From a plasmid, in sequence record NZ_CP102531.1: 64,000 bases of DNA; one strand, given 5' to 3'. Below the pieces are notes generated by a model. It saw nothing but the letters and a program-made list of their open reading frames with translations, was not told the origin of the DNA and did not search any database. The translations under genes were made by a program, and so were the position numbers. Shown here piece by piece: positions 10,271-34,920 of this stretch. How positions within the stretch are numbered: position 1 is the stretch's first letter; each line of letters opens with the position of its first letter.

Positions 10271-10273
10271 AAA

Positions 10274-10549: not shown

Positions 10550-10636
10550 GTTGGTAATTCCTTTCTTGGGTGATCAAGGGCTGGAGAAAAGCAAGGGCTG
10601 GAGTGTCCTCTTGAGTCAGAGTATTCAACAAATGGG

Positions 10637-11620: not shown

Positions 11621-11628
11621 GCTTTCCT

Positions 11629-12774: not shown

Positions 12775-12809
12775 ATCAGTCCCTCCTTTCCATGTCTTTT
12801 ACATCATCA

Positions 12810-13040: not shown

Positions 13041-13057
13041 TATTGATCGCTCCTTTA

Positions 13058-13582: not shown

Positions 13583-13595
13583 CGTCTTCCTCCTT

Positions 13596-18838: not shown

Positions 18839-18855
18839 TGTTACTCACTCCTTTC

Positions 18856-19707: not shown

Positions 19708-19708
19708 A

Positions 19709-19915
19709 TCACGTTAGTGAAATAGAGTTGAACAATGCTCCAGCAGCAATGATTAAACCGCCACCTGCAATTGTCCAGATACCACTTTGAATACCAGGCC
19801 CATTGTGATCCTTCAAAGCACCACCAAGACCAACCAAGCCCCAAGCGGCGTAAATAGAACCACCTGCAATAGCAAATTTTGACATTAAAGAAATCGCTTG
19901 AGATAAAACGTTCAT
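19709..19915 (-). CDS. Small Gly-rich membrane protein (Maff2-like)
   Basis: 68 aa, two hydrophobic segments, GxxxG-rich. It lies between the coupling protein and VirB6. Confidence 0.45.
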   Translation of the reverse strand: MNVLSQAISLMSKFAIAGGSIYAAWGLVGLGGALKDHNGPGIQSGIWTIAGGGLIIAAGALFNSISLT

Positions 19916-19932
19916 GTGTTGTTCCTCCTTAT

Positions 19933-21828
19933 TTATCGATATGTGTCTAATAGATTGACATCAGTCAGGATATCCGAACCCTGTTCGTTCTCCTTGACGT
20001 CATCATCCTTGGTTTCCTCTTGACTGACATTAGCCAGGAAATCTGACTCTGATTTGGATTCTTCTGTTTCTACCTCACCACCTTTGTTGTTCTCGCTTTT
20101 AAGTTGAGGCTGATATACATAGTCTGAGTGATCCGTTTGAAGCTCCTTGTACCGTGGATGTTTTTCCAACGAATATTTTTGCGACAAAAATGGCGGCACA
20201 CCTCTGAGCATGTAAATACTCTGGTCGCCGCCAATTCGATCGACTTCATCAGGCGCTAACAAATCACGCGCGATTTTGTCGTAGTTTTGGTTGAATGAGC
20301 CATTATTGCCTTTGGATTCACCATAACGCTGAACGTCTATCGTTCCTTTGCCAAGAATCTTGGAAATGTACTGAGCGGTTTCACTGTCGTGTCCGCCAAG
20401 GTACAGCAGTGAATCCGAGGCACCGAGAATCGCCTGGTATGACTTTGGATAACGTTCTTTGAGCTGGCTGAGTTCCTGCACAATTGGCACACAGAAAATG
20501 CCCCGTGAACGCAAGGTATTGATACGCTTGTCAAATTGTGGAATCTGTCCACTGTTTGCAAACTCGTCCTGCCAACAAACGACTGTTTCATTAAGCCGGC
20601 CGTTGGCCTGATGGTCAGCACGTTCTACCAAAGTAGTAAACAATGTTTGGTAAACCAAGCTGACCAAGAAATTAAACGTTTCACTTTGATCAGGTAGGAT
20701 CAAAAATAGAATCCGTTTCTCTTCTCCCAATTTTTCAAGTTCTAATGTATCGTCACTGGTAATATCAATAATGCTAGGCACATCAAACGGTGCTAAACGA
20801 ACACCAAGGGAAATGACGATACTCATGGCTGTTTTGGCTGGTGCGAGTTTGAAGATACCATATTGTTTAAGCCCAAACGCATCCGGGAAGTCCTTTTTGA
20901 ATTCTTCAAATATTAAGTCAAGTGGCGTTGTGTTCCCACCAGCGTCCTCCTCAATTGTTGCTGCTCTGACTAAGTCCAAAACATTGGGTACGTTGGCAAC
21001 AACACGGTTGTCAGGATTGCCAGACTCTAAACGTAAATAATCAAACAAGGCTTGCATGAGCGCTTTTTCGCCTTTATCAAAGAACGGATCGCTTTTACTT
21101 TGCGGTGAGGTTGTGTTTTGCATGATAGCATTCACAACTTCAATGACATCATCCTCATTGTTGATATAAGCGAATACATTGAAATGATCAGTGTGTTTGC
21201 GAGTCACCAAATCAAAGACCTTAATCTTATAGCCAGACTTCTCAAAAAAGTTACCCACCCATCTAAGCGTCTGTCCTTTGGTATCAGTAACAACATAGGA
21301 GCTGGAACGCTGCAATAGATTAGGTACGACAACGGTTCTGGTTTTACCAGAACCAGCACCCCCGATGACCGTCACAAATTGATTTCGCTGCAGTTTCATT
21401 GGCCGTTTATGATCCAAGTCATTCAAATACAGCTTTTCCGTGGCCGTCATAATCAGGTTGTTATCTGGGTTTTTGGTATCCTCAAATGGGAGAATATCCT
21501 TATGAGTCCCCCATTTTGCGCTCCCGTGTTCCTCACCTGGTCGATAATTTTTCTTATTGGTCAAGGCATATAAAACTACCAGCGCTACAACTGCCAGTAG
21601 AATAAGACCACCTAGGAATGGTTTGCCATTGAAAGTCGGCGGCCACCAAGAAACCTTGCCAAGATTGTTAGACACGTACAGTATTTTGTCGAGTATAGAC
21701 TTAGCGTCTTTGTCCTGGACGTTATAGGCGGCTCGCGTTAAACCACTGCCAACGATATATACCGCAGAACTACCAATAGCCACAAGGCCGAAATTCCAGA
21801 CTAGGTTTTTCGCTTTTTCTTTGTCCAT
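19933..21828 (-). CDS. Type IV coupling protein (VirD4/TraG/PcfC-like)
   Basis: 631 aa. N-terminal TM helices, Walker A GGAGSGKT, TraG/TraD-family core and an acidic C-terminal tail. Confidence 0.8.
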   Translation of the reverse strand: MDKEKAKNLVWNFGLVAIGSSAVYIVGSGLTRAAYNVQDKDAKSILDKILYVSNNLGKVSWWPPTFNGKPFLGGLILLAVVALVVLYALTNKKNYRPGEEHGSAKWGTHKDILPFEDTKNPDNNLIMTATEKLYLNDLDHKRPMKLQRNQFVTVIGGAGSGKTRTVVVPNLLQRSSSYVVTDTKGQTLRWVGNFFEKSGYKIKVFDLVTRKHTDHFNVFAYINNEDDVIEVVNAIMQNTTSPQSKSDPFFDKGEKALMQALFDYLRLESGNPDNRVVANVPNVLDLVRAATIEEDAGGNTTPLDLIFEEFKKDFPDAFGLKQYGIFKLAPAKTAMSIVISLGVRLAPFDVPSIIDITSDDTLELEKLGEEKRILFLILPDQSETFNFLVSLVYQTLFTTLVERADHQANGRLNETVVCWQDEFANSGQIPQFDKRINTLRSRGIFCVPIVQELSQLKERYPKSYQAILGASDSLLYLGGHDSETAQYISKILGKGTIDVQRYGESKGNNGSFNQNYDKIARDLLAPDEVDRIGGDQSIYMLRGVPPFLSQKYSLEKHPRYKELQTDHSDYVYQPQLKSENNKGGEVETEESKSESDFLANVSQEETKDDDVKENEQGSDILTDVNLLDTYR

Positions 21829-22313
21829 CAGCGCTCACGTTCCTTGCTACGCTGTCGCGGCTTTTTCTCTTTTTGATTGCGTTCCTTTGCGGTCACTTTA
21901 GCCTTTTCAATCTTTTCTTGAAGCGTTTGGCCGTGTTCGGGTGTTTTGTCAAAGTCCTTAACAACCTTCTGCAAAACAAGTTGAACTCGGTCTACATCAG
22001 CACCCTTAAAAAAGACATGGTACATGCCCGTTTCCTTGTCTCGGCGGATAGAAAAGTCAACGTGATACTTTTTAAACTTCTTTCCGAGCGCGCGCAGATC
22101 GGTTTTACTAATATCCACGTGTTCTAGCGCACCCCTTTTTTGCAATTCCGCAATGTTTTGTTTACCAGTCGTCCGCTGATGATGGATTGCTTGTTTGCTC
22201 ATATCCATTGCTTTACTTGGCAACTTGACGGCCAGTGCTTTAAGGAGCGCTTGCGCGGACAAGGTGCTTAACCGTAGAACATACTCTGCTGCTTGGTTGT
22301 CCATTTGATTCAC
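21828..22313 (-). CDS. PcfB-like (DUF3801-type) conjugation protein
   Basis: 161 aa, basic. It sits immediately upstream of the coupling protein, as in enterococcal and lactococcal plasmids. Confidence 0.45.
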   Translation of the reverse strand: MNQMDNQAAEYVLRLSTLSAQALLKALAVKLPSKAMDMSKQAIHHQRTTGKQNIAELQKRGALEHVDISKTDLRALGKKFKKYHVDFSIRRDKETGMYHVFFKGADVDRVQLVLQKVVKDFDKTPEHGQTLQEKIEKAKVTAKERNQKEKKPRQRSKERER

Positions 22314-22322
22314 CTACCCTTT

Positions 22323-23870
22323 TTAGACCGTTTCACTGACTGTTACGGTCAAATTTTGCGTTGTTGTTTGGCCGAATTTATCCGTCACGGTATAAGTCAG
22401 CACATAGCTGCCAGGTTTACTGGTATCAACCGAACCTTCGACATCAACAGTGACATCGCCATAAGAACTGGTAGCCGTAACACTAGCCTTTGGATCAAAG
22501 TGATCGCCAACTTTGAGTTTTGTCGGTACTTTAGACAGATCAAGGGTTGGCTTGTCAGCCACAACGTTGATAGTTACTTCCTTGACGGTCTTCTGTCCAA
22601 ACTTGTCAGTGGCTGTATAAGCAAGCTCATAGCTACCAGGCTTGCTGGTGTCAACTGATCCATCTACAGCCACAATCACATCGCCATAAGGACTAACCGC
22701 TGTGACATTGGCCTTCGGGTTAAACTGGTCTCCCACCTTGAGTTCCGTTGGAACCTTCGACACATCAAGTGTCGGTGCCGTGGCAAACACCGTAACCGAA
22801 CGTTTCAGCGTTGTCACAGCACCATTCTTATCAGTGACGGTATAAATTAGTTCGTAATCACCAAGTTTGCTGGTATCAACGTCTCCTGCAACCTTGATTT
22901 CCGTTGTGAGGTCACCATCTTGATAATCATCAGCCGTAACACCTTGTAACGGATCAAAGGCATGACCAACCTCAGTTTGATTGTTCCCCGAGACATGAAT
23001 AACGGGAGCGTCATTAGTCACGACAACATCACGCGTAGCACTCGTTTTGTGCCCTGCGCTGTCTGTCACTTGGTAGGTCACTTGATAAGTCCCCTCCGTG
23101 TTAACGTCCACAGTGCTGCATAACACAACCTTGTTGGTCAAATCACCATCTTTTACATCATGAGCACTTACACCGTCCATTAAATTGAAGGATTTTTGAC
23201 CTAAATGCAGATGCAGGTCATCAGCAAAGGATATGGTCGGGGCTTGGTCAACTGGTGCTGGTGTTGGATTCGGATCTGGCGTTGGGTTTGGCTCTGGTGT
23301 TGGCGTTGGATTCGGATCTGGCGTCGGGTTTGGCTCTGGTATTGGTTCCGGCGCTGGATTTGGTGTTGAACTAGGTTCCACCGATGGCGTCGTCTTGGTA
23401 TCAGTCGTCTGTTTATCTGTTAACGGTTTAGGTTCAGGCGTTGTTCCTGTATTGTCTGCCGCTTTTGGCGTGTTCTGTTCCGCTGTTGCCTGATCTGCCA
23501 ACGAAATAAGGCTTTGACTATTACTCGACTCAAGCTGTTTGCTCAAATCATTTTTACTGAAAGGAAAGGCGACTACTGTTTGATCACTTTTATCGCTATT
23601 CGGCAGATCCGGAGCCAGGGCATCTTTTATGGTCTGATCGGCTTTGTTAGAGGAAGGCTTTGTGTTCTTCTGTTTTTGCTCGACCTTTTTTGACGGCGTC
23701 CGCCATTGCTTAGATGGAGTGCTACTTTTCTTGACTGATTGCGAAGCGGGGGCAGCGTTTAACTGATAAGCCGTATAGCCGCCGCCTCCCAAGACAATCG
23801 CACTTATCAGCAAGATTGCTGCTGTTTTCTTTTTGTTGTTTGCCATGAATGAATCCTCCTTTTTCCGCAT
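22323..23870 (-). CDS. Membrane-anchored surface protein with Pro/Thr-rich linker and three Ig-like (DUF5011/Big-like) repeats; probable mating adhesin
   Basis: 515 aa. An N-terminal TM anchor is followed by the PEPNPTPDPNPTP linker and then a repeated motif, DxSKVPTxLKVGDxFxPKAxVTAxSxYGDVxVxVxGSVDTSKPGSYxLxYTxTDKFGQ. Confidence 0.55.
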   Translation of the reverse strand: MRKKEDSFMANNKKKTAAILLISAIVLGGGGYTAYQLNAAPASQSVKKSSTPSKQWRTPSKKVEQKQKNTKPSSNKADQTIKDALAPDLPNSDKSDQTVVAFPFSKNDLSKQLESSNSQSLISLADQATAEQNTPKAADNTGTTPEPKPLTDKQTTDTKTTPSVEPSSTPNPAPEPIPEPNPTPDPNPTPTPEPNPTPDPNPTPAPVDQAPTISFADDLHLHLGQKSFNLMDGVSAHDVKDGDLTNKVVLCSTVDVNTEGTYQVTYQVTDSAGHKTSATRDVVVTNDAPVIHVSGNNQTEVGHAFDPLQGVTADDYQDGDLTTEIKVAGDVDTSKLGDYELIYTVTDKNGAVTTLKRSVTVFATAPTLDVSKVPTELKVGDQFNPKANVTAVSPYGDVIVAVDGSVDTSKPGSYELAYTATDKFGQKTVKEVTINVVADKPTLDLSKVPTKLKVGDHFDPKASVTATSSYGDVTVDVEGSVDTSKPGSYVLTYTVTDKFGQTTTQNLTVTVSETV

Positions 23871-24136
23871 TAATATGCTTCAACAAATCGCTTAAACTCG
23901 TTCTGAGGGCGAACATAAGCCACGATCACGCGCTCTTTGCTTGGTAACACCCGCACGATCTCACCAATACAAGTTGTATCTGGCAGAATAGGCCAACCGG
24001 TTTCGATACTTAACACGGCATGACGCAACTTCAACATCAATGCCTTCTCCTTTGGGGGTGGGAATCTGATTTCAAGAAGACCATTGTGCCGCTTAGCTTC
24101 CTTGATGTCTTTTGTTTGAAGAACCAAATTGAACAT
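23870..24136 (-). CDS. Hypothetical protein (88 aa), second gene of the tra operon
   Basis: ORF tightly packed with its neighbours. Confidence 0.45.
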   Translation of the reverse strand: MFNLVLQTKDIKEAKRHNGLLEIRFPPPKEKALMLKLRHAVLSIETGWPILPDTTCIGEIVRVLPSKERVIVAYVRPQNEFKRFVEAY

Positions 24137-24147
24137 ATGATCACCTC

Positions 24148-24426
24148 TTATATCAAGTTTTTTGGGACGGACTTAATGCGTTCTCCGCTAATCACTAGAC
24201 TGCCGTCTTTTTTTAATTCAGCTGACACCACCTTTAGAACCAAAACATTTTTCAGCTGGTTAGGCGGCTTAATATTGCCAATCACCACCGTCATACCAGG
24301 CTTAATTGGATAATCAGCATGATCCTTAACCCATGAAGCTCGGACTCGATAAGAAAGAGCATCATGATCTTTCGAAATCAACTTCAAATTGCGATCATGT
24401 AACCAAATACCTACAGGTTCAGCCAT
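24148..24426 (-). CDS. Hypothetical protein (about 93 aa), first gene of the tra operon
   Basis: The ORF track gives 24148..24546. An internal ATG at 24426 carries a strong RBS (gaaaggagactgaacATG), so the shorter form is preferred. Confidence 0.4.
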   Translation of the reverse strand: MAEPVGIWLHDRNLKLISKDHDALSYRVRASWVKDHADYPIKPGMTVVIGNIKPPNQLKNVLVLKVVSAELKKDGSLVISGERIKSVPKNLI

Positions 24427-24624
24427 GTTCAGTCTCCTTTCTTTAACGCAAAAAACACCTGCAATTAGCTGGCATTTGGCGTTCATTATTTTGGCATTAG
24501 CCAAGGCCGCTTCGTGGAATCGAACCACGTTTCCCAGTAGCGGCATTTGTTGTCCAGTGACACACCATTAAATTGCGTAGCAGAGCACAACTTTGGTAAA
24601 ATGGAGGTACGTTAATACCTAATA

Positions 24625-24651
24625 AAAACGCGCCCTAGGGCGCGCTTTTTG
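24625..24651. terminator. Bidirectional rho-independent terminator
   Basis: aaaaacgcgccctagggcgcgcttttt: a perfect GC stem flanked by an A-run and a T-run. Confidence 0.7.
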
Positions 24652-24793
24652 CTTGTTGACGATGTTTTTCAAGAGCTTCCTGTCGTTCCTCTTCACGAGA
24701 ACACAATCCGCTAATCCGAATAGTTGCAAGCTCACACAAAAGGATAAAGCCTAGTAATACCCAAAAACTGCATTTGAAAATCAGCCACAACAT
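24635..24793 (-). CDS. Small hydrophobic peptide (52 aa; TM helix + charged tail)
   Basis: RBS gaggag lies 8 nt upstream of the ATG (reverse-complement of 24791-24793). The peptide is MLWLIFKCSFWVLLGFILLCELATIRISGLCSREEERQEALEKHRQQAKSAP. Its stop lies inside the terminator stem. Below the ORF-track size cutoff. Confidence 0.3.
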   Translation of the reverse strand: MLWLIFKCSFWVLLGFILLCELATIRISGLCSREEERQEALEKHRQQAKSAP

Positions 24794-24805
24794 CTTAATC
24801 TCTCC

Positions 24806-24994
24806 TCACTTTTCAGTTTTTGAATTGTAGGACGGTAAAAAGCCTGAATCATAAAGTCTTTTCTCAGTAGCAATCAACCGACACACCAATGTTGAGGGTC
24901 GTTCCTTAGTAACCTGACAAAGAGCTTTAAGCTGCTGCTTCTCTTCTGGCGTCAAGGTGATTTGGTAACGTTGATTATTTTTGTTGGCTGTCAT
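24806..24994 (-). CDS. Small ribbon-helix-helix (CopG/RHH-like) DNA-binding protein
   Basis: The track ORF 24806..25084 starts inside the IS. The internal ATG at 24994 has a strong RBS (tggaggaaagATG). The QITLTPEEKQQLKAL motif is RHH-like. Confidence 0.4.
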   Translation of the reverse strand: MTANKNNQRYQITLTPEEKQQLKALCQVTKERPSTLVCRLIATEKRLYDSGFLPSYNSKTEK

Positions 24995-25010
24995 CTTTCC
25001 TCCATTCAAA

Positions 25011-25828
25011 GGTTCTGGTGCAAATTTTCCTCGCTGACTTGATTTTAGTATACTGGGTGCCAAGAAACGAGGGATTGCGCGCATGAATCACTTTAAGGGA
25101 CGCCACTTTCAAAAGGACATCATCTTAGTAGCCGTTGGCTACTATTTCAGATTCAGTCTCAGCTATCGTGACATCGTTGAATTGCTTCGGGATCGGGGTA
25201 TCACTGTTCATCACACCACGGTCATGCGTTGGGTTCATCACTATGGCCCCATCTTTAAGGCTCTATGGCGTCGGCATCAAACAGCTCACGCTAAAAGTTG
25301 GCGAATCGATGAGACCTATATTCGAGTTAAAGGCCGTTGGGCCTATTTGTATCGCGCTATTGACAGTAACGGTTTGACCATGGATTTTGAGCTACGAAAA
25401 CACCGCGATTATACCGCATCCTATCACTTTTTGAAGCGTCTCTTGACGACCAATGGTCGGCCTGATCGATTAGTCACTGATCAATATCGGGCAACACTGA
25501 AAGCAGTGAAGCACCTGATAAAGCAAGACTATTTGAGCAAATCAGCCCACCAATGTTCCAAATATCGAAATAATTTGATTGAACAGGACCACCGATTCAT
25601 TAAACGTCATCGTGTCCGCTCAGCAAGCTTTCAAAGCATTCGAACCGCTAGTGCAACGTTGAGCGGTGTGGAAATTGTTCACGCAATACGCAAAAGAACC
25701 CGACGAGAGTTAAGTCTCATCGGGTTCTCAGTCGTGGACGAATTAGAAGCATTGTTAGCTGCTTAACCTTTAACATAGTATCAATAGCTGGGTAGATGTC
25801 CATCTCTTAGACTGTTTGCACCAGATCC
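25011..25828 (+). mobile_element. IS6-family insertion sequence, copy 2 of 3
   Basis: IRL GGTTCTGGTGCAAATTTTCC at 25011. IRR is ..CTGTTTGCACCAGATCC, ending at 25828. Identical to copy 1. Confidence 0.85.
25083..25766 (+). CDS. IS6-family transposase
   Basis: Identical 227-aa protein. Confidence 0.9.
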   Translation: MNHFKGRHFQKDIILVAVGYYFRFSLSYRDIVELLRDRGITVHHTTVMRWVHHYGPIFKALWRRHQTAHAKSWRIDETYIRVKGRWAYLYRAIDSNGLTMDFELRKHRDYTASYHFLKRLLTTNGRPDRLVTDQYRATLKAVKHLIKQDYLSKSAHQCSKYRNNLIEQDHRFIKRHRVRSASFQSIRTASATLSGVEIVHAIRKRTRRELSLIGFSVVDELEALLAA

Positions 25829-25840
25829 TTGTGAAGTAGT

Positions 25841-26581
25841 ATGGCAACCACAGCAGAAATATTGCAACAAGTGGCGGCAGGGCAATTAAGTCCGACGGTG
25901 GCTGCCCAACAGTTAGAAGCAGGCAAAACAGCGGCATTAGGTTTTGCCAATGTCGATTTAGATCGTCAACGCCGCAATGGCTTTCCTGAGGTCATCTACG
26001 GTGCTGGTAAGACGGCAACCCAAATTGTGGGTATCGTGCAAGCCTTGTCCCAACAGACGTTGCCGATTTTAACGACCCGGTTATCCGCAGAAAAATTCGC
26101 GGCACTCCAACCGGCGTTACCAACGGCTGTCTATCATGCCACTGCGCAGTGTATGACGGTCGGAGAACAACCGGCACCGAAAACACCAGGGTACATTGCC
26201 GTGGTGACGGCGGGGACCTCCGATCAACCGGTCGCTGAAGAAGCAGCAGTAACCGCGGAAACTTTTGGCAATCATGTTGAACGGGTCTATGACGTGGGTG
26301 TTGCAGGAATCCACCGACTGTTTGCCAAGTTGGATGTGATTCGTGGTGCCCGGGTGGTCATTGTGATCGCGGGCATGGAAGGTGCGCTGGCCAGTGTCGT
26401 TGGTGGACTAGTTGATAAGCCCGTGATTGCAGTGCCGACCAGCGTTGGTTATGGTACTAGTTTTCAAGGTATGACCGCGCTATTGACCATGCTCAATAGC
26501 TGTGCGTCGGGGATTACCGTTGTCAACATTGATAACGGCTTTGGTGCCGCCTACTCAGCTAGTATGATCAATCAAATGTAA
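25841..26581 (+). CDS. larB: LarB, pyridinium-3,5-biscarboxylic acid mononucleotide synthase (PurE-like NPN cofactor biosynthesis)
   Basis: 246 aa with a PurE-like C-terminal half ([19 protein letters not shown]). It is followed by larC, larD and larE in the lar operon order. Confidence 0.75.
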
Positions 26582-26611
26582 GATTCAGTTAACTGAACAA
26601 GGAGAAGATAA

Positions 26612-27874
26612 ATGCAAACACTTTATTTAGACGCTTTTTCGGGGATTAGCGGTGATATGTTTCTGGGCGCGTTACTCGATTTAGGACTTGATTTTGAGCA
26701 ATTAAAAACCGAATTGGCTAAGTTACACGTGCACGGTTATGAATTAACGCAGCAACGGGAAGCCCAGAGTAGCATCTATGGCACGAGCTTTGATGTTCAG
26801 GTTGCGGGTGGTAAGGACCATGGTTTTGTGGAACATCACCATCATCAGCATGAAGCTGGGCATCATCATGATCATGAAGCGCGTCATTTAGCTGATATTG
26901 AGGCGTTAATTGACGGCAGTGACTTATCAGATACCGTGAAACACCACGCGAAAGCGATCTTTATGGAAATTGCGCAAGCGGAAGCAGCGGTTCATCACAT
27001 GCCACTAGCTGAAGTTCATTTCCATGAAGTGGGCGCGTTGGATTCGATTGTTGATATTGTGGGCTGCTGTATTGGGTTGGAATTGATGCAGATTGATACC
27101 ATCATGGCTTCACCGTTAAGTGATGGTAGTGGTTTTATTAACGTTGCCCATGGTCAGATGCCAGTTCCCGTCCCAGCCGTGATGCAGATGCGAGTTGGTA
27201 GTGCCATTCCGATTCAACAACGGTTGGATGTGCATACTGAATTGATTACCCCCACTGGGATGGGCTTGGTCAAGACGCTCGTACGTGAATTCGGACCGTT
27301 ACCGGAAAATGCCGTGCCAACTAAAGTTGGTTATGGGTTTGGTAAACGGGACACGGGCGGTTTCAATGCACTGCGAGCCGTATTATTCGAAAAAAAAAAA
27401 CTAAGTCAGCAAATCGTTAACCGGACGGCTGATGCTGTCTTAATGATTGAAGCTAATCTAGATGATCAGACGGGTGAAGGACTGGGGTACGTGATGAACC
27501 AGTTATTAACGGCGGGCGCATACGATGTGTTCTTCACGCCCATTCAGATGAAGAAAGATCGGCCGGCGACAAAGTTAACGGTTTTGGGAAACGTTAACGA
27601 TAAGGACTTACTGACTAAGTTGATTTTACAAGAAACGACGACGATTGGTGTACGTTACCAGACGTGGCAACGTACTATTATGCAACGGCACTTCCTGACG
27701 GTCGCAACGCCGTACGGTGACGTTCAAGTTAAAGTGGCGACATATCAAGATATTGAGAAGAAGATGCCGGAATATGCGGATTGTGCCCAGCTGGCGCAGC
27801 AATTTCATATTCCGTTTAGAACGGTCTACCAGGCAGCCTTAGTGGCGGTAGATCAATTAGATGAGGAGGCGTAA
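26612..27874 (+). CDS. larC: LarC, nickel-insertion (CTP-dependent nickelochelatase) protein; here a single uninterrupted reading frame
   Basis: 420 aa, DUF111/LarC family (MQTLYLDAFSGISGDMFLGALLDLGL..). Contains a His-rich stretch (HHHHQHEAGHHHDHEARH). An in-frame A11 tract lies at 27390-27400. Confidence 0.75.
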   Translation: MQTLYLDAFSGISGDMFLGALLDLGLDFEQLKTELAKLHVHGYELTQQREAQSSIYGTSFDVQVAGGKDHGFVEHHHHQHEAGHHHDHEARHLADIEALIDGSDLSDTVKHHAKAIFMEIAQAEAAVHHMPLAEVHFHEVGALDSIVDIVGCCIGLELMQIDTIMASPLSDGSGFINVAHGQMPVPVPAVMQMRVGSAIPIQQRLDVHTELITPTGMGLVKTLVREFGPLPENAVPTKVGYGFGKRDTGGFNALRAVLFEKKKLSQQIVNRTADAVLMIEANLDDQTGEGLGYVMNQLLTAGAYDVFFTPIQMKKDRPATKLTVLGNVNDKDLLTKLILQETTTIGVRYQTWQRTIMQRHFLTVATPYGDVQVKVATYQDIEKKMPEYADCAQLAQQFHIPFRTVYQAALVAVDQLDEEA

Positions 27875-28595
27875 TTTTTTGGTACATCAGTTGATTGCTG
27901 AATTTATGGGCACAGCCCTAATGATTATTTTTGGGGTGGGTGTTCATTGTAGTTCCGTATTAAAGGGAACCAAGTATCGGGGTTCCGGTCATATTTTTGC
28001 CATTACAACTTGGGGTTTTGGGATTAGCGTTGCCTTATTCATTTTTGGCAATGTTTGCATTAACCCGGCAATGGTTTTGGCGCAGTGTCTATTAGGAAAC
28101 ATCGCATGGTCCTTATTTATTCCGTATTCCGTTGCGGAAGTGCTTGGTGGGGTCGTGGGCTCAGTGATCGTTTGGATCATGTATGCTGATCATTTTAAAG
28201 CCTCAACAGATGAGATTTCACCCATTACAATTCGGAACTTATTCTGTACGGCACCAGCCGTTCGTAACTTGCCGCGGAATTTCTTTGTGGAATTATTTGA
28301 TACATTTATTTTTATTTCGGGTATTTTAGCGATTTCTGAGATTAAAACGCCGGGAATCGTGCCAATTGGCGTTGGCCTACTTGTATGGGCCATTGGGATG
28401 GGACTTGGTGGTCCAACCGGATTCGCAATGAACTTAGCCCGAGATATGGGGCCCCGGATTGCCCACGCCATCTTACCAATTGCCAATAAAGCCGATAGTG
28501 ATTGGCAATACGGTATCATTGTGCCAGGAATTGCGCCCTTTGTCGGGGCAGCAATTGCCGCTTGGTTTATGCATGGCTTTTTTGGAATTAATTAA
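27861..28595 (+). CDS. larD: LarD, MIP-family aquaglyceroporin-like lactate channel
   Basis: 244 aa with 6 TM segments. Has an NPA motif (INPAM) and a second NPA-like motif (NLARDMGPRIAH). The start codon is uncertain, as it overlaps the larC end. Confidence 0.65.
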   Translation: MRRRNFLVHQLIAEFMGTALMIIFGVGVHCSSVLKGTKYRGSGHIFAITTWGFGISVALFIFGNVCINPAMVLAQCLLGNIAWSLFIPYSVAEVLGGVVGSVIVWIMYADHFKASTDEISPITIRNLFCTAPAVRNLPRNFFVELFDTFIFISGILAISEIKTPGIVPIGVGLLVWAIGMGLGGPTGFAMNLARDMGPRIAHAILPIANKADSDWQYGIIVPGIAPFVGAAIAAWFMHGFFGIN

Positions 28596-28619
28596 ATTAA
28601 ATAGAAGAAGGGTTTTATT

Positions 28620-29450
28620 ATGGCAACATTAGCAACAAAAAAAGCAACGTTAGTAGCAGCATTAAAGGATTTACAACGGGTCACCGTGGCCTTTTCTGGT
28701 GGAATCGACAGTACCTTAGTTTTGAAGATGGCCCTCGATGTTTTAGGCCGTGACAATGTGACCGCTGTGGTTGCGAACTCTGAATTATTTATGGATGAAG
28801 AATTCGATAAAGCGATGAGTTTAGCCGAAGAACTAGGTGCTAACGTTCAAGGAACTACGCTAGACTACTTGAGCGATGACCACATCAAGAACAACACGCC
28901 TGATAGCTGGTACTATGCGAAGAAGATGTTCTACAGCCGGTTGAATGACATTGCGGCTAATAACGGTAGTGCCGCTGTCCTAGACGGTATGATCAAGAAT
29001 GATGAAAATGATTATCGTCCTGGTTTGAAGGCCCGTAGTGAAGCGGGGGCCCGGAGCTTGTTACAAGAAGCTGATTTCTTCAAGACTGACGTTCGGGCCT
29101 TGGCACAAGAACTCGGTTTGACGAACTGGAATAAAGTGGCGTCATGCTCTGTATCTTCACGGTTCCCATACGGGACGACGTTGACACATGACAATATTGC
29201 TCAAGTAATGGCCGCCGAAAAATATTTGCGTAGTTTAGGTTTTCCAACGGTCCGGGTTCGTTTCCACGATGATATTGCGCGGATCGAATTACCAGAAGCA
29301 CGGATTGGTGATTTCTTAGTCTTTAACGACCGCGTTAACCGTCAATTGCAATCACTTGGATTCCGCTACGTTACCCTTGACTTAGGTGGCTTCCGTAGTG
29401 GCCGAATGAATGATACGTTGACCAAGGCACAATTGGCCACTTTCGCCTAG
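28620..29450 (+). CDS. larE: LarE, ATP-dependent sacrificial sulfur transferase (PP-loop ATP pyrophosphatase family)
   Basis: 276 aa. Contains the PP-loop motif SGGIDS and the conserved Cys-containing region (KVASCSVSSRFPYG). Confidence 0.75.
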   Translation: MATLATKKATLVAALKDLQRVTVAFSGGIDSTLVLKMALDVLGRDNVTAVVANSELFMDEEFDKAMSLAEELGANVQGTTLDYLSDDHIKNNTPDSWYYAKKMFYSRLNDIAANNGSAAVLDGMIKNDENDYRPGLKARSEAGARSLLQEADFFKTDVRALAQELGLTNWNKVASCSVSSRFPYGTTLTHDNIAQVMAAEKYLRSLGFPTVRVRFHDDIARIELPEARIGDFLVFNDRVNRQLQSLGFRYVTLDLGGFRSGRMNDTLTKAQLATFA

Positions 29451-29596
29451 GTCTAATCAAATTAATGATAGTGGTGTCGGGATTAATCGGAGATGGGCGG
29501 CTGAACGGCGGTGATCATGGTTCATTCGCCTATCCGATGATAATCGTAACCCCAGCCGATACGCACATGTTGCGATTATCGCCTGACACCCCAAAA

Positions 29597-29630
29597 AGCG
29601 CAGTTCAAGGCCGTCCTTGAACTGCGTTTT
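29597..29630. terminator. Rho-independent (bidirectional) terminator after larE
   Basis: aaaaagcgcagttcaagg-ccgt-ccttgaactgcgttttt. Confidence 0.65.
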
Positions 29631-29734
29631 TCGTATCTTCATTTTTAGATCAACAGGCGTCAAAAGTCACGACGAGTTTACCAACGACTTGACCAGCTTG
29701 GAGTTGTTGTAAACCAGTTACAAGGGATCTGGTG

Positions 29735-30542
29735 CAAACAGTCTAAGAGATGGACATCTACCCAGCTATTGATACTATGTTAAAGGTTAAGCAGCTAACA
29801 ATGCTTCTAATTCGTCCACGACTGAGAACCCGATGAGACTTAACTCTCGTCGGGTTCTTTTGCGTATTGCGTGAACAATTTCCACACCGCTCAACGTTGC
29901 ACTAGCGGTTCGAATGCTTTGAAAGCTTGCTGAGCGGACACGATGACGTTTAATGAATCGGTGGTCCTGTTCAATCAAATTATTTCGATATTTGGAACAT
30001 TGGTGGGCTGATTTGCTCAAATAGTCTTGCTTTATCAGGTGCTTCACTGCTTTCAGTGTTGCCCGATATTGATCAGTGACTAATCGATCAGGCCGACCAT
30101 TGGTCGTCAAGAGACGCTTCAAAAAGTGATAGGATGCGGTATAATCGCGGTGTTTTCGTAGCTCAAAATCCATGGTCAAACCGTTACTGTCAATAGCGCG
30201 ATACAAATAGGCCCAACGGCCTTTAACTCGAATATAGGTCTCATCGATTCGCCAACTTTTAGCGTGAGCTGTTTGATGCCGACGCCATAGAGCCTTAAAG
30301 ATGGGGCCATAGTGATGAACCCAACGCATGACCGTGGTGTGATGAACAGTGATACCCCGATCCCGAAGCAATTCAACGATGTCACGATAGCTGAGACTGA
30401 ATCTGAAATAGTAGCCAACGGCTACTAAGATGATGTCCTTTTGAAAGTGGCGTCCCTTAAAGTGATTCATGCGCGCAATCCCTCGTTTCTTGGCACCCAG
30501 TATACTAAAATCAAGTCAGCGAGGAAAATTTGCACCAGAACC
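29735..30542 (-). mobile_element. IS6-family insertion sequence, copy 3 of 3
   Basis: GGATCTGGTGCAAACAG at 29735. Reverse-complement of GGTTCTGGTGCAAATTTTCC ends at 30542. Identical to copies 1 and 2, and in the same orientation as copy 1. Confidence 0.85.
29787..30470 (-). CDS. IS6-family transposase
   Basis: Identical 227-aa protein. Confidence 0.9.
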   Translation of the reverse strand: MNHFKGRHFQKDIILVAVGYYFRFSLSYRDIVELLRDRGITVHHTTVMRWVHHYGPIFKALWRRHQTAHAKSWRIDETYIRVKGRWAYLYRAIDSNGLTMDFELRKHRDYTASYHFLKRLLTTNGRPDRLVTDQYRATLKAVKHLIKQDYLSKSAHQCSKYRNNLIEQDHRFIKRHRVRSASFQSIRTASATLSGVEIVHAIRKRTRRELSLIGFSVVDELEALLAA

Positions 30543-30559
30543 TCAGAAAGGACTTCAAT

Positions 30560-31453
30560 ATGAAATTAACAACAAAATGGTTTTTAGCCCTCAGTACAGT
30601 ATTAGCAATTAGTATCAGTGGTTGTTCAGCCGTTCAAGGATCGAACACAAGTCAATCAAGTACAACCAAATCCGCTGCTTCCTCTGCTACATCGACGAGG
30701 ACTACTGAGACTGCGCAGACAAACAGTGATCTTGCCAACTTGCCATTTGATCTGACAAAGTACCCGCAAAACTACACAACGCTTAATCAAAACGTTCCAA
30801 TCTTCGTAAATGGTTTTAAGCAAACAGTAGCTGCCGCCCAGAAAGCGAAAACCACACGCGCTCAAACTTACTTTGAAGGCTTGGATGATCTAGGAAGAAC
30901 GCAAAGTGTTTCTGCCATTGTGACCTACAGTATAATGCACAGTCACGCAAGCTCTGTACGCAAGCGACCAGCCTTTCCTAAAACCACGAAGGTTGCCGGT
31001 GAGTACGCTGATGGCGTGTATAACAAAAACCTGCAACAATGGTTTGGCCGCAGCAACAATAACCGAATGGTCCAACTTAACGGTTATCGAGGTTATCTGT
31101 ATAATAAAAGCCACCTGTTAGCGTGGTCGCTAGGTGGCGATATGCAGACTCATAATGTGATTCTTGGCACTCGTGCTCAAAATGTTGGTACCAATGACCA
31201 ACGAAATCCCGGTGGTATGGCTTACACAGAAACTCTGACGCGCAATTATCTTAGCTCACACCAAGACGATGCGGTCGCTTATCAGGTTATTCCCGTGTAC
31301 GTTGGCCAAGAACTGGTACCGCGTGGCACACACGTTTTGGTGCAGTCGATTAACAATCCATCACAGTTTCAAGCTAATGTCTGGGTCTTCAATACGCAAT
31401 CAGGGGTAACTATTAACTACAATAACGGCTCATTTCAACTGAATGGAGAGTGA
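30560..31453 (+). CDS. Lipoprotein DNA-entry nuclease family protein (NucA/EndA-like non-specific endonuclease)
   Basis: The track ORF starts at 30530, inside the IS. The ATG at 30560 gives MKLTTKWFLALSTVLAISISGCS, a signal peptide plus lipobox. A Ser/Thr-rich linker follows. A beta-beta-alpha-Me-like region YNKSHLLAWSLGG...NVILGTRAQNVGTND resembles the DRGHL..LGG..N motif of B. subtilis NucA / S. pneumoniae EndA. Confidence 0.6.
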   Translation: MKLTTKWFLALSTVLAISISGCSAVQGSNTSQSSTTKSAASSATSTRTTETAQTNSDLANLPFDLTKYPQNYTTLNQNVPIFVNGFKQTVAAAQKAKTTRAQTYFEGLDDLGRTQSVSAIVTYSIMHSHASSVRKRPAFPKTTKVAGEYADGVYNKNLQQWFGRSNNNRMVQLNGYRGYLYNKSHLLAWSLGGDMQTHNVILGTRAQNVGTNDQRNPGGMAYTETLTRNYLSSHQDDAVAYQVIPVYVGQELVPRGTHVLVQSINNPSQFQANVWVFNTQSGVTINYNNGSFQLNGE

Positions 31454-31818: not shown

Positions 31819-31825
31819 GGCCTGT

Positions 31826-32296
31826 CTAGTATCTTTTAAGAACTATCTTCAGGAAGGCCAATACAACCATTTGAAGACTGCTGTTAAGGGCGCGTTCACA
31901 GTTTTTCCAAAGTCGCCGACATTTCTCTAGCCAACTCCATGAACGTTCAATGATCCATCGTTGCGGTAACACCGTGAACATATGCAACTCGTTGCGTTTA
32001 GCTACCGTCGTCTTAGCATTCAAAATGAGCTTCACCTGATCCGCAAAGTCATTGCCAGTGTAGCCACCATCAACCATGACATGCTGAACCAGCTCTAAAT
32101 TTTGGCTAGCCAAACTAAACATAGCCAATGCACCTGAACGATCTAATACATTAGCTCGTATCACGAGAATGGCTTGTGGTAAACCGTTAATATCAACCGC
32201 CATATGACGCTTAATCCCTGAAATCTTTTTGGCGCCATCGTAGCCACTATTTTTCGTTAAATCAGTGGTTTTAACACTTTGAGCATCAACAATCAC
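31826..32296 (-). CDS. IS5-family transposase OrfB (DDE catalytic part)
   Basis: [21 protein letters not shown]...VDGGYTG. Confidence 0.75.
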
Positions 32297-32613
32297 AAAC
32301 GACGTTCGGGCCGATCGGCCCTGTGCAAAGCGATAGGAAGCAACAGTTTTTTTAAAAGCCTTTCTAATAGCGAATCAGCTGTCGGGTCTGGTTTATCTCG
32401 CCACATATCGTAATAGCGGTAGACAGTGTGCCATTCCGGGAAATCGTGCGGTAATTCACGCCATTGACACCCTGTAGTAAGCGAGTAAAGAATGGCATTG
32501 AATACGTCATAAAGATCATAACGACGCGGTCTTGTATGCTTGCGGAAGTTTTCTAAATCAGGTTGTATTAACGCAAATTGCGCTCGAGAAATATTGCTTG
32601 GATAATCTGGCAT
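32293..32613 (-). CDS. IS5-family transposase OrfA (N-terminal part)
   Basis: [25 protein letters not shown]... The stop overlaps the orfB start (ATGA), consistent with a programmed frameshift. Confidence 0.75.
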
Positions 32614-32680
32614 GACAAACTCCTCAGTCGGTTTTCCACAATTCTACCAGATTCAGCAGATACTAGACAGGTTCTAAGAA

Positions 32681-33307
32681 TCAGCAAAACATCTTTTGTA
32701 GATACCCTTTTTTAAGTTCTTGGAGTTTTTCAAGCTTACGCTGATGAAGAGCGATAGTGTCGTCTAACTGTTTGAAAAATGAGCCGATTTTTTGTTGTTC
32801 ATCTACTATCTTAGGAACAACTAGTAGAGTATTAAAAAAATCAGTAGGTGCAATATTTAGTAACCCATGATTACGAGCCCCTTCTGCCGCATTCTTAGAA
32901 ACCTCCCGGTACCATCTAGTGGTATCGTAATATGAAACTAGAAACTGAGAATTGATTTTCGTAGGTCTAAAGACTATATAAAGTGTCGATAGAACGCCCA
33001 TATCATACTTATCTAAACGCTTAATAGCGCCCCATGGATATCCATTTGAATAACTTTTATTATATGCAAACTCACCATTTTTAACTAAAAAATATCCAGT
33101 AACATCACGACTCGCTACTTGCTTATTGAAAAAATCATTTTGATCTACCAAACCATCTTGTGCAGATATTGTTAGCGGAAGAGTCGACTCATTATTTTTG
33201 TTTTTTCTAGTAACACGCTCTGAGATGCTAGATAACTTACGCTCTTCCCAAGGATCAGTAAACCCTTTAAATCTTAACTGCGGGTAACTAGCTTGTTGAT
33301 CTTTCAT
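32681..33307 (-). CDS. hsdS: Type I restriction-modification specificity subunit, half-size (single target-recognition domain)
   Basis: 208 aa, where typical HsdS is about 400 aa. It has one TRD followed by the central conserved coiled-coil region (IALHQRKLEKLQELKKGYLQKMF) and then a stop. Its start overlaps the hsdM stop. An IS5 end lies 5 bp past the stop. Confidence 0.7.
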   Translation of the reverse strand: MKDQQASYPQLRFKGFTDPWEERKLSSISERVTRKNKNNESTLPLTISAQDGLVDQNDFFNKQVASRDVTGYFLVKNGEFAYNKSYSNGYPWGAIKRLDKYDMGVLSTLYIVFRPTKINSQFLVSYYDTTRWYREVSKNAAEGARNHGLLNIAPTDFFNTLLVVPKIVDEQQKIGSFFKQLDDTIALHQRKLEKLQELKKGYLQKMFC

Positions 33308-34920
33308 TTGTGGGCCTCCGGTTTTGACTGGTCATTAACCTGGGTGGTCACTAACTGGCTAGCTAATTCATTAAAGGCTTGCTCATTCTGACTGATTTCC
33401 TCGTCCAGTTGCTTCAGATCAGCTTTAACTTGGTTCAGATCAATCTCGGGTTCCGGTTCAAACGTATCAACGTAGCGCGGAATATTTAAATTATAATCAT
33501 TTTCCTTGATTTCCGCCGGTGAGGCCACATGAGCATATTTATCAACATCTTGCCGGTTTTGATAAGTGGTCACAATTTTTTGAATATTCGCTGCCGTTAG
33601 CTTATTTTGATTCTTGTCCTTTTCAAATTCCCGGGACGCATCAATAAACAAGACGTCGTCAGTGGTTTTGTGTTTCTTTAAAATCATGATTAACGTTGGA
33701 ATACCAGTGGAATGAAAAATATTGGCAGGTAGCCCAATAATGGCATCAATCCGGTTATCCATTAATAGTTTTTGCCGGATTTTGCCCTCCTTAGCCCCCC
33801 GAAATAGCACGCCATGGGGTAAGACAATGCCCATAGTCCCGTGTTCCTGCAAATGATAAAAGCCGTGTAGCAGAAAGGCAAAGTCGGCTTTAGATTTAGG
33901 TGGTAAGACGCCATAGTCGCGGAAACGGGGATCAGACAAGCGTTTATCACTGTTATCCCAGTGTGCCGAGTAGGGCGGGTTCATGACGACCGCATCAAAT
34001 AAGTAAGGTTCGTCAACCGGCCAATCTTTACTTAACGTGTCACCATTGCGTAAGTGCATATCGTCATACGAGACTCCATGTAACATTAGGTTCATACGGG
34101 CCAGGTTATAGGTCGTGGTGTTCAATTCTTGGCCGTGATAACTCACTAAATTGGGGTCTTGCACGTGCTGTCCGACATTTAATAGCAGTGAACCGGAACC
34201 AACCGCTGGATCATAGATAGTCCGCACTTGGTTGTCACCTGCATTGCGCTGATAAGTCACAATCTGGGCAATAATGTCGGACACCTGCCGTGGAGTATAA
34301 AATTCACCCGCCTTCTTACCAGAATCACTGGCAAATTGCGCGATTAAGTATTCATAGGCGTCACCTAAGACGTCGCCTTGATGATGGACGAGATCAATCG
34401 CATTTAAAGCTAACATGGTATCACTGATAGTTTGATTCCGTTGTTGTAAAGAACTGCCTAATTTATTACTACTTAAATCCACATCGGCAAACAAGCCCGA
34501 AAAGTCTTGCGCTGAAGATAGATTTTGTGTCGACTGTTCCAGATCATGAAGTGCTTGAGATAAATCGTCTAACGCAAAAGTATGGGCTTGAATCTTGCCA
34601 ATCAGGGTGGTGTACAACGCTTGTGGTTGAATTAAATAGCCGAGCGTGTTTTGCAAATACTCCACTAAACTGGGCTGCACCGAGACGCCTTCCAATTCAA
34701 ACTGAGGATCCATATACTGAGCATATTTCCGGGTGACATTTTCGGTTTCGCCTGCCCAATCACTAAAGGTCGTTAAGGTTTTCTCAGATAGAAACCGATA
34801 AAAAATTAACCCCAATAAATAATTTTTATATTCAGAAGCGTCCATTTTCCCGCGTAAGACATCGGCCGCATTCCATAGGGCGCTTTCAAGTTGACTAGCT
34901 TGCGTTGTTTTTTCTGACAT
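33304..34920 (-). CDS. hsdM: Type I R-M N6-adenine DNA methyltransferase subunit
   Basis: 538 aa. Has the HsdM N-domain and the NPPY motif (VVMNPPYSAHW). Confidence 0.85.
   Translation of the reverse strand: MSEKTTQASQLESALWNAADVLRGKMDASEYKNYLLGLIFYRFLSEKTLTTFSDWAGETENVTRKYAQYMDPQFELEGVSVQPSLVEYLQNTLGYLIQPQALYTTLIGKIQAHTFALDDLSQALHDLEQSTQNLSSAQDFSGLFADVDLSSNKLGSSLQQRNQTISDTMLALNAIDLVHHQGDVLGDAYEYLIAQFASDSGKKAGEFYTPRQVSDIIAQIVTYQRNAGDNQVRTIYDPAVGSGSLLLNVGQHVQDPNLVSYHGQELNTTTYNLARMNLMLHGVSYDDMHLRNGDTLSKDWPVDEPYLFDAVVMNPPYSAHWDNSDKRLSDPRFRDYGVLPPKSKADFAFLLHGFYHLQEHGTMGIVLPHGVLFRGAKEGKIRQKLLMDNRIDAIIGLPANIFHSTGIPTLIMILKKHKTTDDVLFIDASREFEKDKNQNKLTAANIQKIVTTYQNRQDVDKYAHVASPAEIKENDYNLNIPRYVDTFEPEPEIDLNQVKADLKQLDEEISQNEQAFNELASQLVTTQVNDQSKPEAHK

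Follow-up and report, generated by a model that had tools for sequence, protein, structure and literature searches.

The larB, larC, larD and larE genes in the stretch of Lacticaseibacillus paracasei plasmid DNA analysed here (the window; 64,000 nt of sequence record NZ_CP102531.1) are very probably what is left, on the 3′ side, of a plasmid-borne lar locus that derives from Lactiplantibacillus and was cut short by an IS6-family element. The relic of an IS-mediated deletion was one of two explanations offered by an earlier sequence-only reading, and it is strongly supported by a near-identical complete locus on plasmid pFAM18149.23, by an identical IS6 copy upstream of that locus, and by an 11-nt scar of larA next to the IS end in the window. 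The features on which this reading is based are compiled in Table 1.

Table 1. Positions of the IS6 copies, the lar genes and neighbouring features in the window
Feature	Position	Strand	Description
IS6-family insertion sequence, copy A	25011–25828	+	818 bp; sequence comparison and Pfam
Copy A transposase ORF	25083–25766	+	directed toward larB
larA 3′ remnant	25829–25839	+	last 11 nt (..tt gtg aag TAG); alignment to pFAM18149.23
larB	25841–26581	+	246 aa; pyridinium-3,5-biscarboxylic acid mononucleotide synthase; AIRC Pfam domain
larC	26612–27874	+	420 aa; single ORF; nickel-inserting cyclometallase
larD	27879–28595	+	238 aa from TTG 27879 (alternative ATG 27861); MIP-family lactic acid channel
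larE	28620–29450	+	276 aa; sacrificial sulfur transferase
Bidirectional intrinsic terminator	29598–29633		hairpin 29598–29626, then TTTTT
Convergent Zn-ADH/quinone oxidoreductase gene, 3′ end	29650–29724	−	last 24 codons and stop; Lactiplantibacillus chromosome gene
IS6-family insertion sequence, copy B	29725–30542	−	transposase ORF 29787–30470
IS6-family insertion sequence, copy C	4424–5241	−	absent from the sequence-only reading

A complete lar locus on plasmid pFAM18149.23

The L. paracasei plasmid pFAM18149.23 (NZ_CP017264.1) harbors a full lar locus consisting of larO/Q/M, larR and larA to larE. Window positions 25829–29724 align to positions 8001–11896 of this plasmid with a single mismatch in 3896 bp. 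In this alignment, the break in synteny falls at the end of copy A, 11 nt before the end of the larA stop codon. On pFAM18149.23, larA (6737–8011) and larB (from 8013) are separated by 1 nt. An IS at 2152–2969, 100% identical to copy A and in the same orientation, lies 5 kb further upstream, and the right-hand IS6 occupies exactly the insertion site of copy B, but is a 98.9% variant. The segment missing from the window corresponds to positions 2970–8000 (5031 bp); LarR, the larR-larA intergenic region and the nickel importer (larMN/Q/O), all located at 3289–6736, are absent from the window. Compared with the window, pFAM18149.23 thus keeps 5031 bp with a hypothetical gene, larO/Q/M, larR and larA, and its outer flanks are unlike. 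As the flank on the IRL side of the corresponding IS does not resemble that of copy A, we regard this plasmid as a model of the ancestor rather than as the direct parent.

The 8.9-kb piece of pFAM18149.23 that extends exactly from IS to IS (2970–11896) contains larO/Q/M, larR and larA-B-C-D-E together with the hypothetical gene and a 3′ quinone oxidoreductase gene fragment, and is colinear with a Lactiplantibacillus chromosomal contig at 98.2% identity. Likewise, the chromosomal lar locus of L. plantarum (larR, larMN/Q/O, larA-B-C1-C2-D-E) shares the gene order of the window, is 98–99% identical in sequence, and has a quinone oxidoreductase gene followed by thiM as its downstream neighbours. 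It differs from the window in that larA, LarR and the nickel importer are present and flanking IS elements are lacking. A summary of how the locus is organised and controlled by LarR is given in PMC10250755. The larA-B-C-D-E order which the sequence-only reading had given for L. plantarum was found in the Lactiplantibacillus-type loci that we compared.

The IS-larB junction carries the end of larA

Copy A ends at 25828 and the larB ATG is at 25841, which leaves a gap of 12 nt as described before. Position 25829 of the window corresponds to position 8001 of pFAM18149.23, where larA ends at 8011, and the single nucleotide that natively separates larA from larB is at position 25840. The 11 nt at 25829–25839 mark the deletion junction. 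A microhomology deletion was considered, since TGTGA is found both after the IS of pFAM18149.23 and at the end of larA. However, the extra T in the junction (GATCC followed by TTGTGAAG) agrees with the attachment of an IS end to its target, and a microhomology join was therefore rejected.

No further larA sequence was detected in the window, as had been claimed: a tblastn search with an L. plantarum-type LarA gave a best E value of 7.6, and there was no Lar_N domain among the larger window ORFs that were checked or annotated. Of the gene for a Lar_N/LarA_C protein, the last 11 nt alone remain. In the larA frame upstream of larB there is just a 7-codon, TTG-started ORF that ends at the TAG, and no upstream ORF extends larB or restores coupling, with an in-frame TGA located at 25832–25834. 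Translational coupling of larB to larA would accordingly be lost in the remnant, from which no lactate racemase is expected. Reports place the lar promoter in the larR-larA intergenic region; the LarR-dependent promoter and the dedicated nickel importer would have disappeared with the deletion.

Retained genes and expression signals

The ORFs of larB, larC, larD and larE are all intact, each with the expected Pfam domains, and the hairpin with its T-stretch (Table 1) agrees with the terminator described in the sequence-only reading. LarB, LarC and LarE are near-identical to solved L. plantarum structures. LarB, a PurE-like carboxylase/hydrolase, matches PDB 7MJ0 over its full length (E 1e-151); LarC, a CTP-dependent nickel insertase with both LarC1 and LarC2, carries the Pfam domain Ni_insertion (E 9e-137), and its residues 272–420 match L. 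plantarum LarC2 (PDB 6BWO); LarE, a PP-loop sulfur transferase, is identical to PDB 5UDQ at 274 of 276 residues with the cysteine of ASCSVSS intact. The length of the A-tract at 27390–27400 sets whether larC is a fused ORF or split into larC1 and larC2. It is A11 in the window, where larC is therefore one ORF, in contrast to A10 in plasmid pBD-II; the larC of L. plantarum is split at A10 and translated by programmed frameshifting (PMC13510736). The terminator downstream of larE is common to the convergent oxidoreductase gene, which is interrupted by copy B.

It had been suggested that copy A drives larBCDE by donating an outward −35 element. The best hybrid promoter is TTTGCA-16-TAGTAT, with the −35 at 25815–25820 and the −10 at 25837–25842. 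This TAGTAT is the sole −10 at suitable spacing and overlaps the larB ATG, so that transcripts would begin inside larB. Hence, copy A and larB would not form an IS257/IS26-type hybrid promoter, in which an outward −35 combines with a −10 of the flank upstream of the start, and a promoter scan of the + strand of the junction found none. While the donated −35 does not suit this geometry, read-through from the co-oriented transposase gene into larB may occur, as there is no terminator between them (no terminator-like structure in the RNA fold of 25760–25860; z = 0.27). Any expression of larBCDE would come only from such read-through. The predicted anti-SD duplex energies are −1.4 kcal/mol for larB, which has no Shine-Dalgarno sequence, −8.5 kcal/mol for larC, −12.3 kcal/mol for larD (from TTG 27879), which has a strong Shine-Dalgarno sequence and the best of the cluster, and −5.3 kcal/mol for larE.

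With four intact genes that are co-oriented with the transposase gene and not separated from it by a terminator, the remnant may retain some residual function.

IS6 copies in the window

Copies A, B and C are 100% identical to one another over 818 bp each. Copies A and B are the inverted, identical pair which the sequence-only reading had recognised on either side of larBCDE, and are the IS parts (25011–25828 and 29725–30542) of a larger inverted repeat (25001–25828/29725–30552); copy C lies in direct orientation to B and in inverted orientation to A. Both A and B have a single ORF of 227 aa, in which a DDE_Tnp_IS240 domain (PF13610; E 3.4e-39) is recognised. The terminal inverted repeats, GGTTCTGGTGCAAA and GGATCTGGTGCAAA, are 14 bp long and match at 13 of 14 positions. 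Thus, the copies show the features of the IS6 family, i.e., a length of ~0.8 kb, a single IS240/IS26-type DDE transposase and short GG(T/A)TCTG-type inverted repeats. Comparison of the 8- and 12-bp IS flanks in direct and reverse-complement pairings revealed no 8-bp target-site duplication at the three copies of the window or the three copies of pFAM18149.23. Such absence is expected after deletion, cointegration or recombination, and is no argument against IS6 membership.

The outer flanks of the IS-lar-IS unit are unlike (CATTCAAA versus TCAGAAAG). The repeat finder indicated a 13-nt match between the flanks of copies C and A, but by eye this came down to a 7-nt AGTAGTA coincidence plus a T. 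When plasmids were searched for an empty site with an artificial join of the left flank of copy A and the IRL flank of copy C, the two halves were never contiguous. In pWX2, the left flank of copy A is followed by the DNA that lies to the left of copy C, in reverse complement.

Adjacent deletions, cointegrates and pseudo-compound transposons are established behaviour of IS26/IS257-type elements of the IS6 family. The window resembles such systems in that the passenger DNA lies between identical IS copies, a truncated gene directly adjoins an IS end, no target-site duplications are left after recombination, and the segment enclosed by a direct pair (C and B) is missing from a sister plasmid. 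In contrast to IS26/IS257-type pseudo-compound transposons, the copies that flank the lar genes are inverted rather than direct, and the lar segment is therefore no classic translocatable unit.

Distribution among plasmids

The window matches plasmids pBD-II, pW56 and pACT. Positions 24500–31000 are identical to pBD-II 19265–25764 except for one A in the larC poly-A tract, and the plasmid of the window is larger than pBD-II, with an extra lactose PTS segment. The same IS-larB junction is present in the independent assemblies pBD-II, pW56, pACT and CP192308.1 as well as on one gut metagenome contig. Contig L097 has a different left flank, equal to that of copy C, which reflects an inversion isomer or else the route taken through the repeat during assembly; the pACT draft shows an artefact-like 19-bp duplication at an IS boundary.

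The sister plasmid pLC2W corresponds to the window with 25,301 bp taken out, which make up one IS and the 24.5-kb conjugation-plus-lar segment enclosed by the direct copies C and B. As pLC2W has no lar unit, the lar remnant is dispensable.

Broadbent et al. (2012, BMC Genomics 13:533; PMC3496567) have described a ‘partial lar operon’ of Lactobacillus casei BD-II that lies between transposases, noting five of the six lar genes and their horizontal transfer from L. plantarum. The account of this operon in that paper gives neither the deletion junction nor a complete plasmid-borne progenitor. The racemase-less remnant has been known since then, and is ordinary.

Origin of the remnant and alternative explanations

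The ancestral state would have been an 8.9-kb piece of Lactiplantibacillus chromosome between two IS6 copies, as on pFAM18149.23. From there, the left IS may have moved by intramolecular transposition to a site within the final larA codons; alternatively, a new IS copy may have inserted in the end of larA and then recombined with the left IS. By either route 5031 bp would be lost, from the hypothetical gene through larO/Q/M, larR and the larR-larA intergenic region to all but the final 11 nt of larA. Afterwards, recombination among three identical IS6 copies could have brought the remnant into a conjugative plasmid of the pBD-II/pW56/pACT type and wiped out every target-site duplication. One more recombination or conversion event is needed because copies A and B are 100% identical, yet the IS at the copy B site on pFAM18149.23 is a 98.9% variant. 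The lar genes would appear intact because the deletion was presumably very recent.

In about 15% of genomes, larBCE occur without larA, which suggests that there are users of the nickel-pincer cofactor (NPN) other than LarA (PMC11796402). Genomes with only larB/C/E, e.g., of cyanobacteria, for which a non-LarA NPN acceptor is presumed, have biosynthetic genes without larA as in the window (PMC11796402), whereas the lack of larA in the window is explained by a very recent deletion with a visible scar and does not reflect a stable conserved set. Such genomes, together with the four intact ORFs near-identical to characterised enzymes and the terminator-free gap behind a co-oriented transposase gene, would be compatible with a functional form of the second proposal of the sequence-only reading, a mobile NPN cassette. 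In this form, IS-expressed larBCE would supply a LarA-family or non-LarA enzyme of the L. paracasei chromosome and the IS6 pair would move the unit. We consider this highly improbable. Intactness is uninformative when only one SNP in 3.9 kb separates the remnant from the complete locus, the same deletion took away LarR and the nickel importer, and larB has no Shine-Dalgarno sequence and is uncoupled from larA. Mobility found no support either: the unit was seen neither at two or more unrelated sites nor with a flanking 8-bp duplication, every occurrence lies in the single pBD-II-type backbone lineage, no movement to a second site was observed, and pLC2W lacks the unit. Moreover, the 80 best LarA loci from species reference genomes included none of L. 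paracasei, L. casei or L. rhamnosus, a literature search on LarA homologues in L. paracasei returned nothing, and the supplement of PMC11770544 had no entry. That the remnant is transcribed by read-through and its NPN used by an acceptor encoded on the L. paracasei chromosome, be it non-LarA or a distant LarA-family protein, seems even less probable.

Retention of the remnant for LarD alone, an aquaglyceroporin-type channel that would confer an NPN-independent benefit under acid stress or for lactate flux, with larB, larC and larE as passengers, is improbable as well. The ribosome-binding site of larD is the strongest of the cluster, the annotation reads D/L-lactic acid transporter, and a lactic acid channel function is on record (summarised in PMC10250755), but larD has no dedicated promoter and would need the same putative read-through, the event is too recent for a sequence signal of selection, and the gene is missing from pLC2W. 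A mis-join of reads across the 818-bp repeat at the IS-larB junction, which the three identical IS copies, the pACT duplication and the left flank of L097 would favour, can practically be dismissed, as the join of IS end and larB lies outside the repeat, recurs in at least five independent assemblies and the gut metagenome contig, and keeps the exact 3′ end of larA.

Implications

Truncation by IS6 makes this locus a precise case of such an element stripping the racemase from a horizontally acquired, plasmid-borne lar locus; commercial probiotic strains belong to the lineage concerned. Beyond bookkeeping, its importance is slight. It also calls for caution, as ‘larBCE without larA’ can reflect a fresh deletion scar and need not point to a new NPN-dependent enzyme. 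If strain W56 is in essence BL23 with this plasmid added, W56 and BL23 would form a ready isogenic pair in which to seek an NPN acceptor. With regard to D-lactate and strain safety, the truncated plasmids should not confer lactate racemisation, whereas plasmids of the pFAM18149.23 type should.

The IS6-flanked lar genes

Four intact, co-oriented lar ORFs followed by a terminator lie between two inverted IS6 copies, as the sequence-only reading had described. These copies (A and B, 818 bp each) are 100% identical, end in 14-bp terminal inverted repeats (GGTTCTGGTGCAAA and GGATCTGGTGCAAA) and each carry a single ORF of 227 aa with an IS6-type DDE domain (PF13610, E 3.4e-39). A third copy (C), absent from that reading, is also 100% identical. 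Profile searches showed that the Lar proteins carry the expected Pfam domains. LarB and LarC are nearly identical to the solved L. plantarum proteins LarB (7MJ0) and LarC2 (6BWO), and LarE shares 274 of 276 residues with L. plantarum LarE (5UDQ) and retains its cysteine motif. The larB ATG lies only 12 nt beyond the end of copy A, and larA is indeed missing: tblastn with LarA gave no match in the window (best E 7.6), and none of the larger checked or annotated ORFs encodes a LarA-like product.

Coordinates of IS elements, lar genes and other features in the window
Feature	Coordinates	Strand	Remarks
IS6 copy C	4424–5241	−	
IS6 copy A	25011–25828	+	
larB	25841–26581	+	ORF, Pfam domain
larC	26612–27874	+	ORF, Pfam domain
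larD	27879–28595	+	TTG start with strong ribosome-binding site; alternative ATG 27861
larE	28620–29450	+	ORF, Pfam domain
Terminator 3′ of larE	29598–29633		G+C-rich hairpin and T-run
IS6 copy B	29725–30542	−	
IS5-like copies	31821–32677, 41579–42450, 48178–49047		
Specificity gene	32681–33307	−	type I restriction-modification, 208 aa
hsdM	33304–34920		beside specificity gene
hsdR	34934–38101		beside specificity gene
Cargo block 1	38845–41485		cysteine synthase, Cys-Met PLP enzyme, hexapeptide acetyltransferase
Cargo block 2	43349–47574		lactose-type: PRD antiterminator, PTS EIICB, GH1 phospho-beta-galactosidase
2621-aa ORF	52884–60749	−	

A complete plasmid-borne locus and the deletion in larA

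L001, the complete lar locus on the L. paracasei plasmid pFAM18149.23 (NZ_CP017264.1), has the order IS6 (2152–2969, +), hypothetical gene, ABC ATPase, ECF T component, CbiM, Crp/Fnr regulator (LarR), larA-larB-larC-larD-larE, IS6 (11897–12714, −). Its left IS6 is 100% identical to the window copies and oriented like copy A; its right IS6 occupies the exact insertion site of copy B, yet is a 98.9% variant. L001 8001–11896 matches window 25829–29724 with one mismatch (window 25844, G versus T). With the last larA nucleotide at L001 8011 and larB beginning at 8013, window 25829–25839 (TTGTGAAGTAG) corresponds to the final 11 nt of larA, and 25840 to the native 1-nt larA–larB spacer. The synteny break, which the sequence-only reading had proposed to locate by alignment, is at 25828/25829, within larA and 11 nt before its end, where copy A is joined directly to the gene. 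Missing from the window are 5031 bp (L001 2970–8000), comprising a putative Ni importer, LarR, the larR–larA intergenic region and larA.

The comparison indicates that the remnant is what the earlier note had offered as one of two readings, a relic of an IS-mediated deletion. Both adjacent deletion and insertion plus recombination are established mechanisms for the IS6 family. Adjacent deletion by intramolecular replicative transposition would leave the IS end abutting the interior of larA; a fresh IS6 insertion followed by recombination between direct copies would give the same product and is equally expected. A simple microhomology deletion is ruled out by an additional T at the junction.

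The stretch between the two IS6 copies that flank the complete locus, precisely L001 2970–11896, aligns colinearly at 98.2% identity with a Lactiplantibacillus chromosomal contig, and LarB proteins identical to that of the window are common among chromosomal loci ordered transporter, Crp, LarA, LarB, LarC1, LarC2, MIP, LarE, Zn-ADH, thiM. Moreover, copy B interrupts a convergent Zn-ADH/quinone oxidoreductase gene of which the last 24 codons remain (29650–29724). Together, these comparisons indicate that the lar module is a captured segment of a Lactiplantibacillus chromosome, in agreement with the conclusion of Broadbent et al. for BD-II (PMC3496567).

The plasmid around the remnant is of a conjugative type (relaxase, VirB4, VirD4). 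Window 24500–31000 is the same as in the L. paracasei plasmids pBD-II (NC_017476.1) and pW56 (HE970765.1) bar one base. Plasmid pACT from an Actimel isolate differs there by the same base and by a 19-bp duplication at the IS boundary which looks like an assembly artefact, and is 100% identical to window 1–24500.

The larC poly-A tract (window 27390–27400; L001 9562–9572; about 22155 in L003, corresponding to pBD-II) has eleven residues in the window, pFAM18149.23 and Apilactobacillus micheneri (L018), giving one 420-aa ORF; LarC is also a single 420-aa protein on metagenome contig L097. Ten residues, which split larC1 and larC2, are found in pBD-II, pACT, an L. plantarum plasmid and about 25 chromosomal loci of Lactiplantibacillus, Loigolactobacillus, Latilactobacillus, Apilactobacillus and Sporolactobacillus kofuensis, and split genes are also annotated in pW56 and CP192308.1. 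It is the out-of-frame A10 state that is conserved, consistent with the programmed frameshift known for larC (PMC13510736); A11 could be genuine slippage variation or an error in sequencing the homopolymer.

Expression of the remnant

The lar promoter reportedly lies upstream of larA. This site, the remainder of the larR–larA intergenic region and LarR are all deleted in the window; in L. plantarum, LarR controls lar expression, with the two gene clusters arranged divergently (PMC10250755). The earlier suggestion that the IS end donates a −35 element to larBCDE found no support. A consensus scan detected no plus-strand promoter at the IS/larB junction, and a relaxed scan gave TTTGCA (25815–25820) and, after a 16-nt spacer, TAGTAT (25837–25842), the only suitably spaced −10. 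As this −10 box overlaps the larB ATG, transcripts from such a promoter would begin inside larB. Copy A also contains a weak internal candidate (TTGTTA at 25752, TAGTAT ending at 25781). The promoter of the transposase gene points in the same direction as larB and no terminator was found between the transposase stop (25766) and larB, so that read-through from this gene would be the only plausible source of larBCDE transcripts.

Shine-Dalgarno pairing is essentially lacking for larB (−1.4 kcal/mol) and amounts to −8.5, −12.3 and −5.3 kcal/mol for larC, larD and larE. A start codon 1 nt past an upstream stop is the classic layout for translational coupling, and larB begins 1 nt beyond the larA stop in the native locus. 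No comparable upstream ORF ends just before larB in the window, and larB has probably lost its coupling to larA.

IS6 rearrangements

In the sister plasmid pLC2W (NC_017475.1), 25,301 bp bounded by the direct copies C and B are absent, namely one IS and the segment with the whole conjugation region, copy A and larBCDE; the sequence to either side matches the window at 100% identity. It follows that this segment acts like one arm of an IS6 cointegrate or deletion and that the lar remnant can be dispensed with. The two plasmids are an IS6 cointegrate/resolution pair from sister strains. Plasmid pWX2, an IS-free relative, joins the DNA left of copy A (window 21211–25010) to the reverse complement of what lies left of copy C, which places the 19.8-kb conjugation region (5242–25010) in inverted orientation between C and A, themselves inverted copies. 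At this join pWX2 has 86 bp (L088 3801–3886), a stretch with a hairpin, that the window lacks. On L097 the order is copy C-side flank, IS, larB, as in the opposite isomer, although this could be a wrong assembly path across the 818-bp repeat.

The IRL-end neighbour of copy C (AAACCAGTCTCAAGG, 5246–5260) matches the IRR-end neighbour of copy B (AAACCAGTTACAAG plus the first G of the IS, 29710–29724) at 13 of 15 positions, and these two flanks both fold into short hairpins. Several IRR-side flanks start with CTT (CTTGTAAC, CTTATCAG, CTTCAAAC). Preferred targets or coincidence could account for such resemblance. The IRL end of copy B is separated by 17 nt (30543–30559) from a downstream DNA/RNA non-specific endonuclease gene (ATG at 30560). 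This junction, also present in pLC2W, is another site where an IS end could affect an adjoining gene.

A possible client enzyme

The other reading, a mobile cassette supplying nickel-pincer cofactor to a client enzyme encoded elsewhere, is legitimate in general, as about 15% of genomes have larBCE but no larA and non-LarA acceptors are possible (PMC11796402). For this remnant we found no support. That the genes are intact is uninformative, because a single SNP in 3.9 kb relative to the complete locus leaves no time for decay. Flanks, pLC2W, pWX2, L097 and junction occurrences gave no sign that IS-larBCDE-IS moves as a unit: 8-bp target-site duplications are absent at every IS6 copy compared, the outer flanks of the A–B unit are unlike each other, and the truncated IS–larB junction was seen only in the pBD-II/pW56/pACT lineage and once in metagenomes, on a human gut contig. 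Searching reference genomes, one per species, with LarA gave 243 relatives. Among the best 80 of these, each with 80% identity or more, are L. saniviri and one Lacticaseibacillus MAG but none from L. paracasei, casei or rhamnosus. This speaks against a plantarum-type larA being present in the reference genome of the species and has no bearing on distant LarA homologues. Read-through expression and a hidden client are possible for what we regard as a deletion relic.

Other features of the window

The 2621-aa ORF, whose pBD-II counterpart carries the annotation SpaA isopeptide-forming pilin-related protein, includes a 282-nt (94-aa) unit repeated in tandem 14 times with 85–92% identity (53089–57083); the number of repeats probably varies among assemblies. 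Three IS5-like copies (~98% mutual identity) bracket two cargo blocks; the lactose block, between inverted copies, can be aligned to pLC2W and not to the best pBD-II match. The restriction-modification specificity gene appears truncated or half-sized, given its length and its position against an IS5-like element. PLSDB/RGI labels a 75-aa hypothetical ORF (window about 2277–2504; L086, i.e., pLC2W, 1857–2084) as APH(2'')-Ie with 100% identity, probably a database artefact as the ORF is much too short for a phosphotransferase.

Relation to previous work

A partial lar operon is already known and is ordinary for IS6-rich lactobacillus plasmids. For BD-II, Broadbent et al. (2012, PMC3496567) describe a plasmid-borne cluster that has five of the six L. 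plantarum lar operon genes, is 98–99% identical to L. plantarum and is flanked by transposase genes on either side; they ascribe it to horizontal transfer and assign it no role. To this account our analysis adds the third IS copy, the relations to pLC2W and pWX2, the exact junction, a complete plasmid-borne progenitor-like locus and the loss of LarR and the Ni importer.
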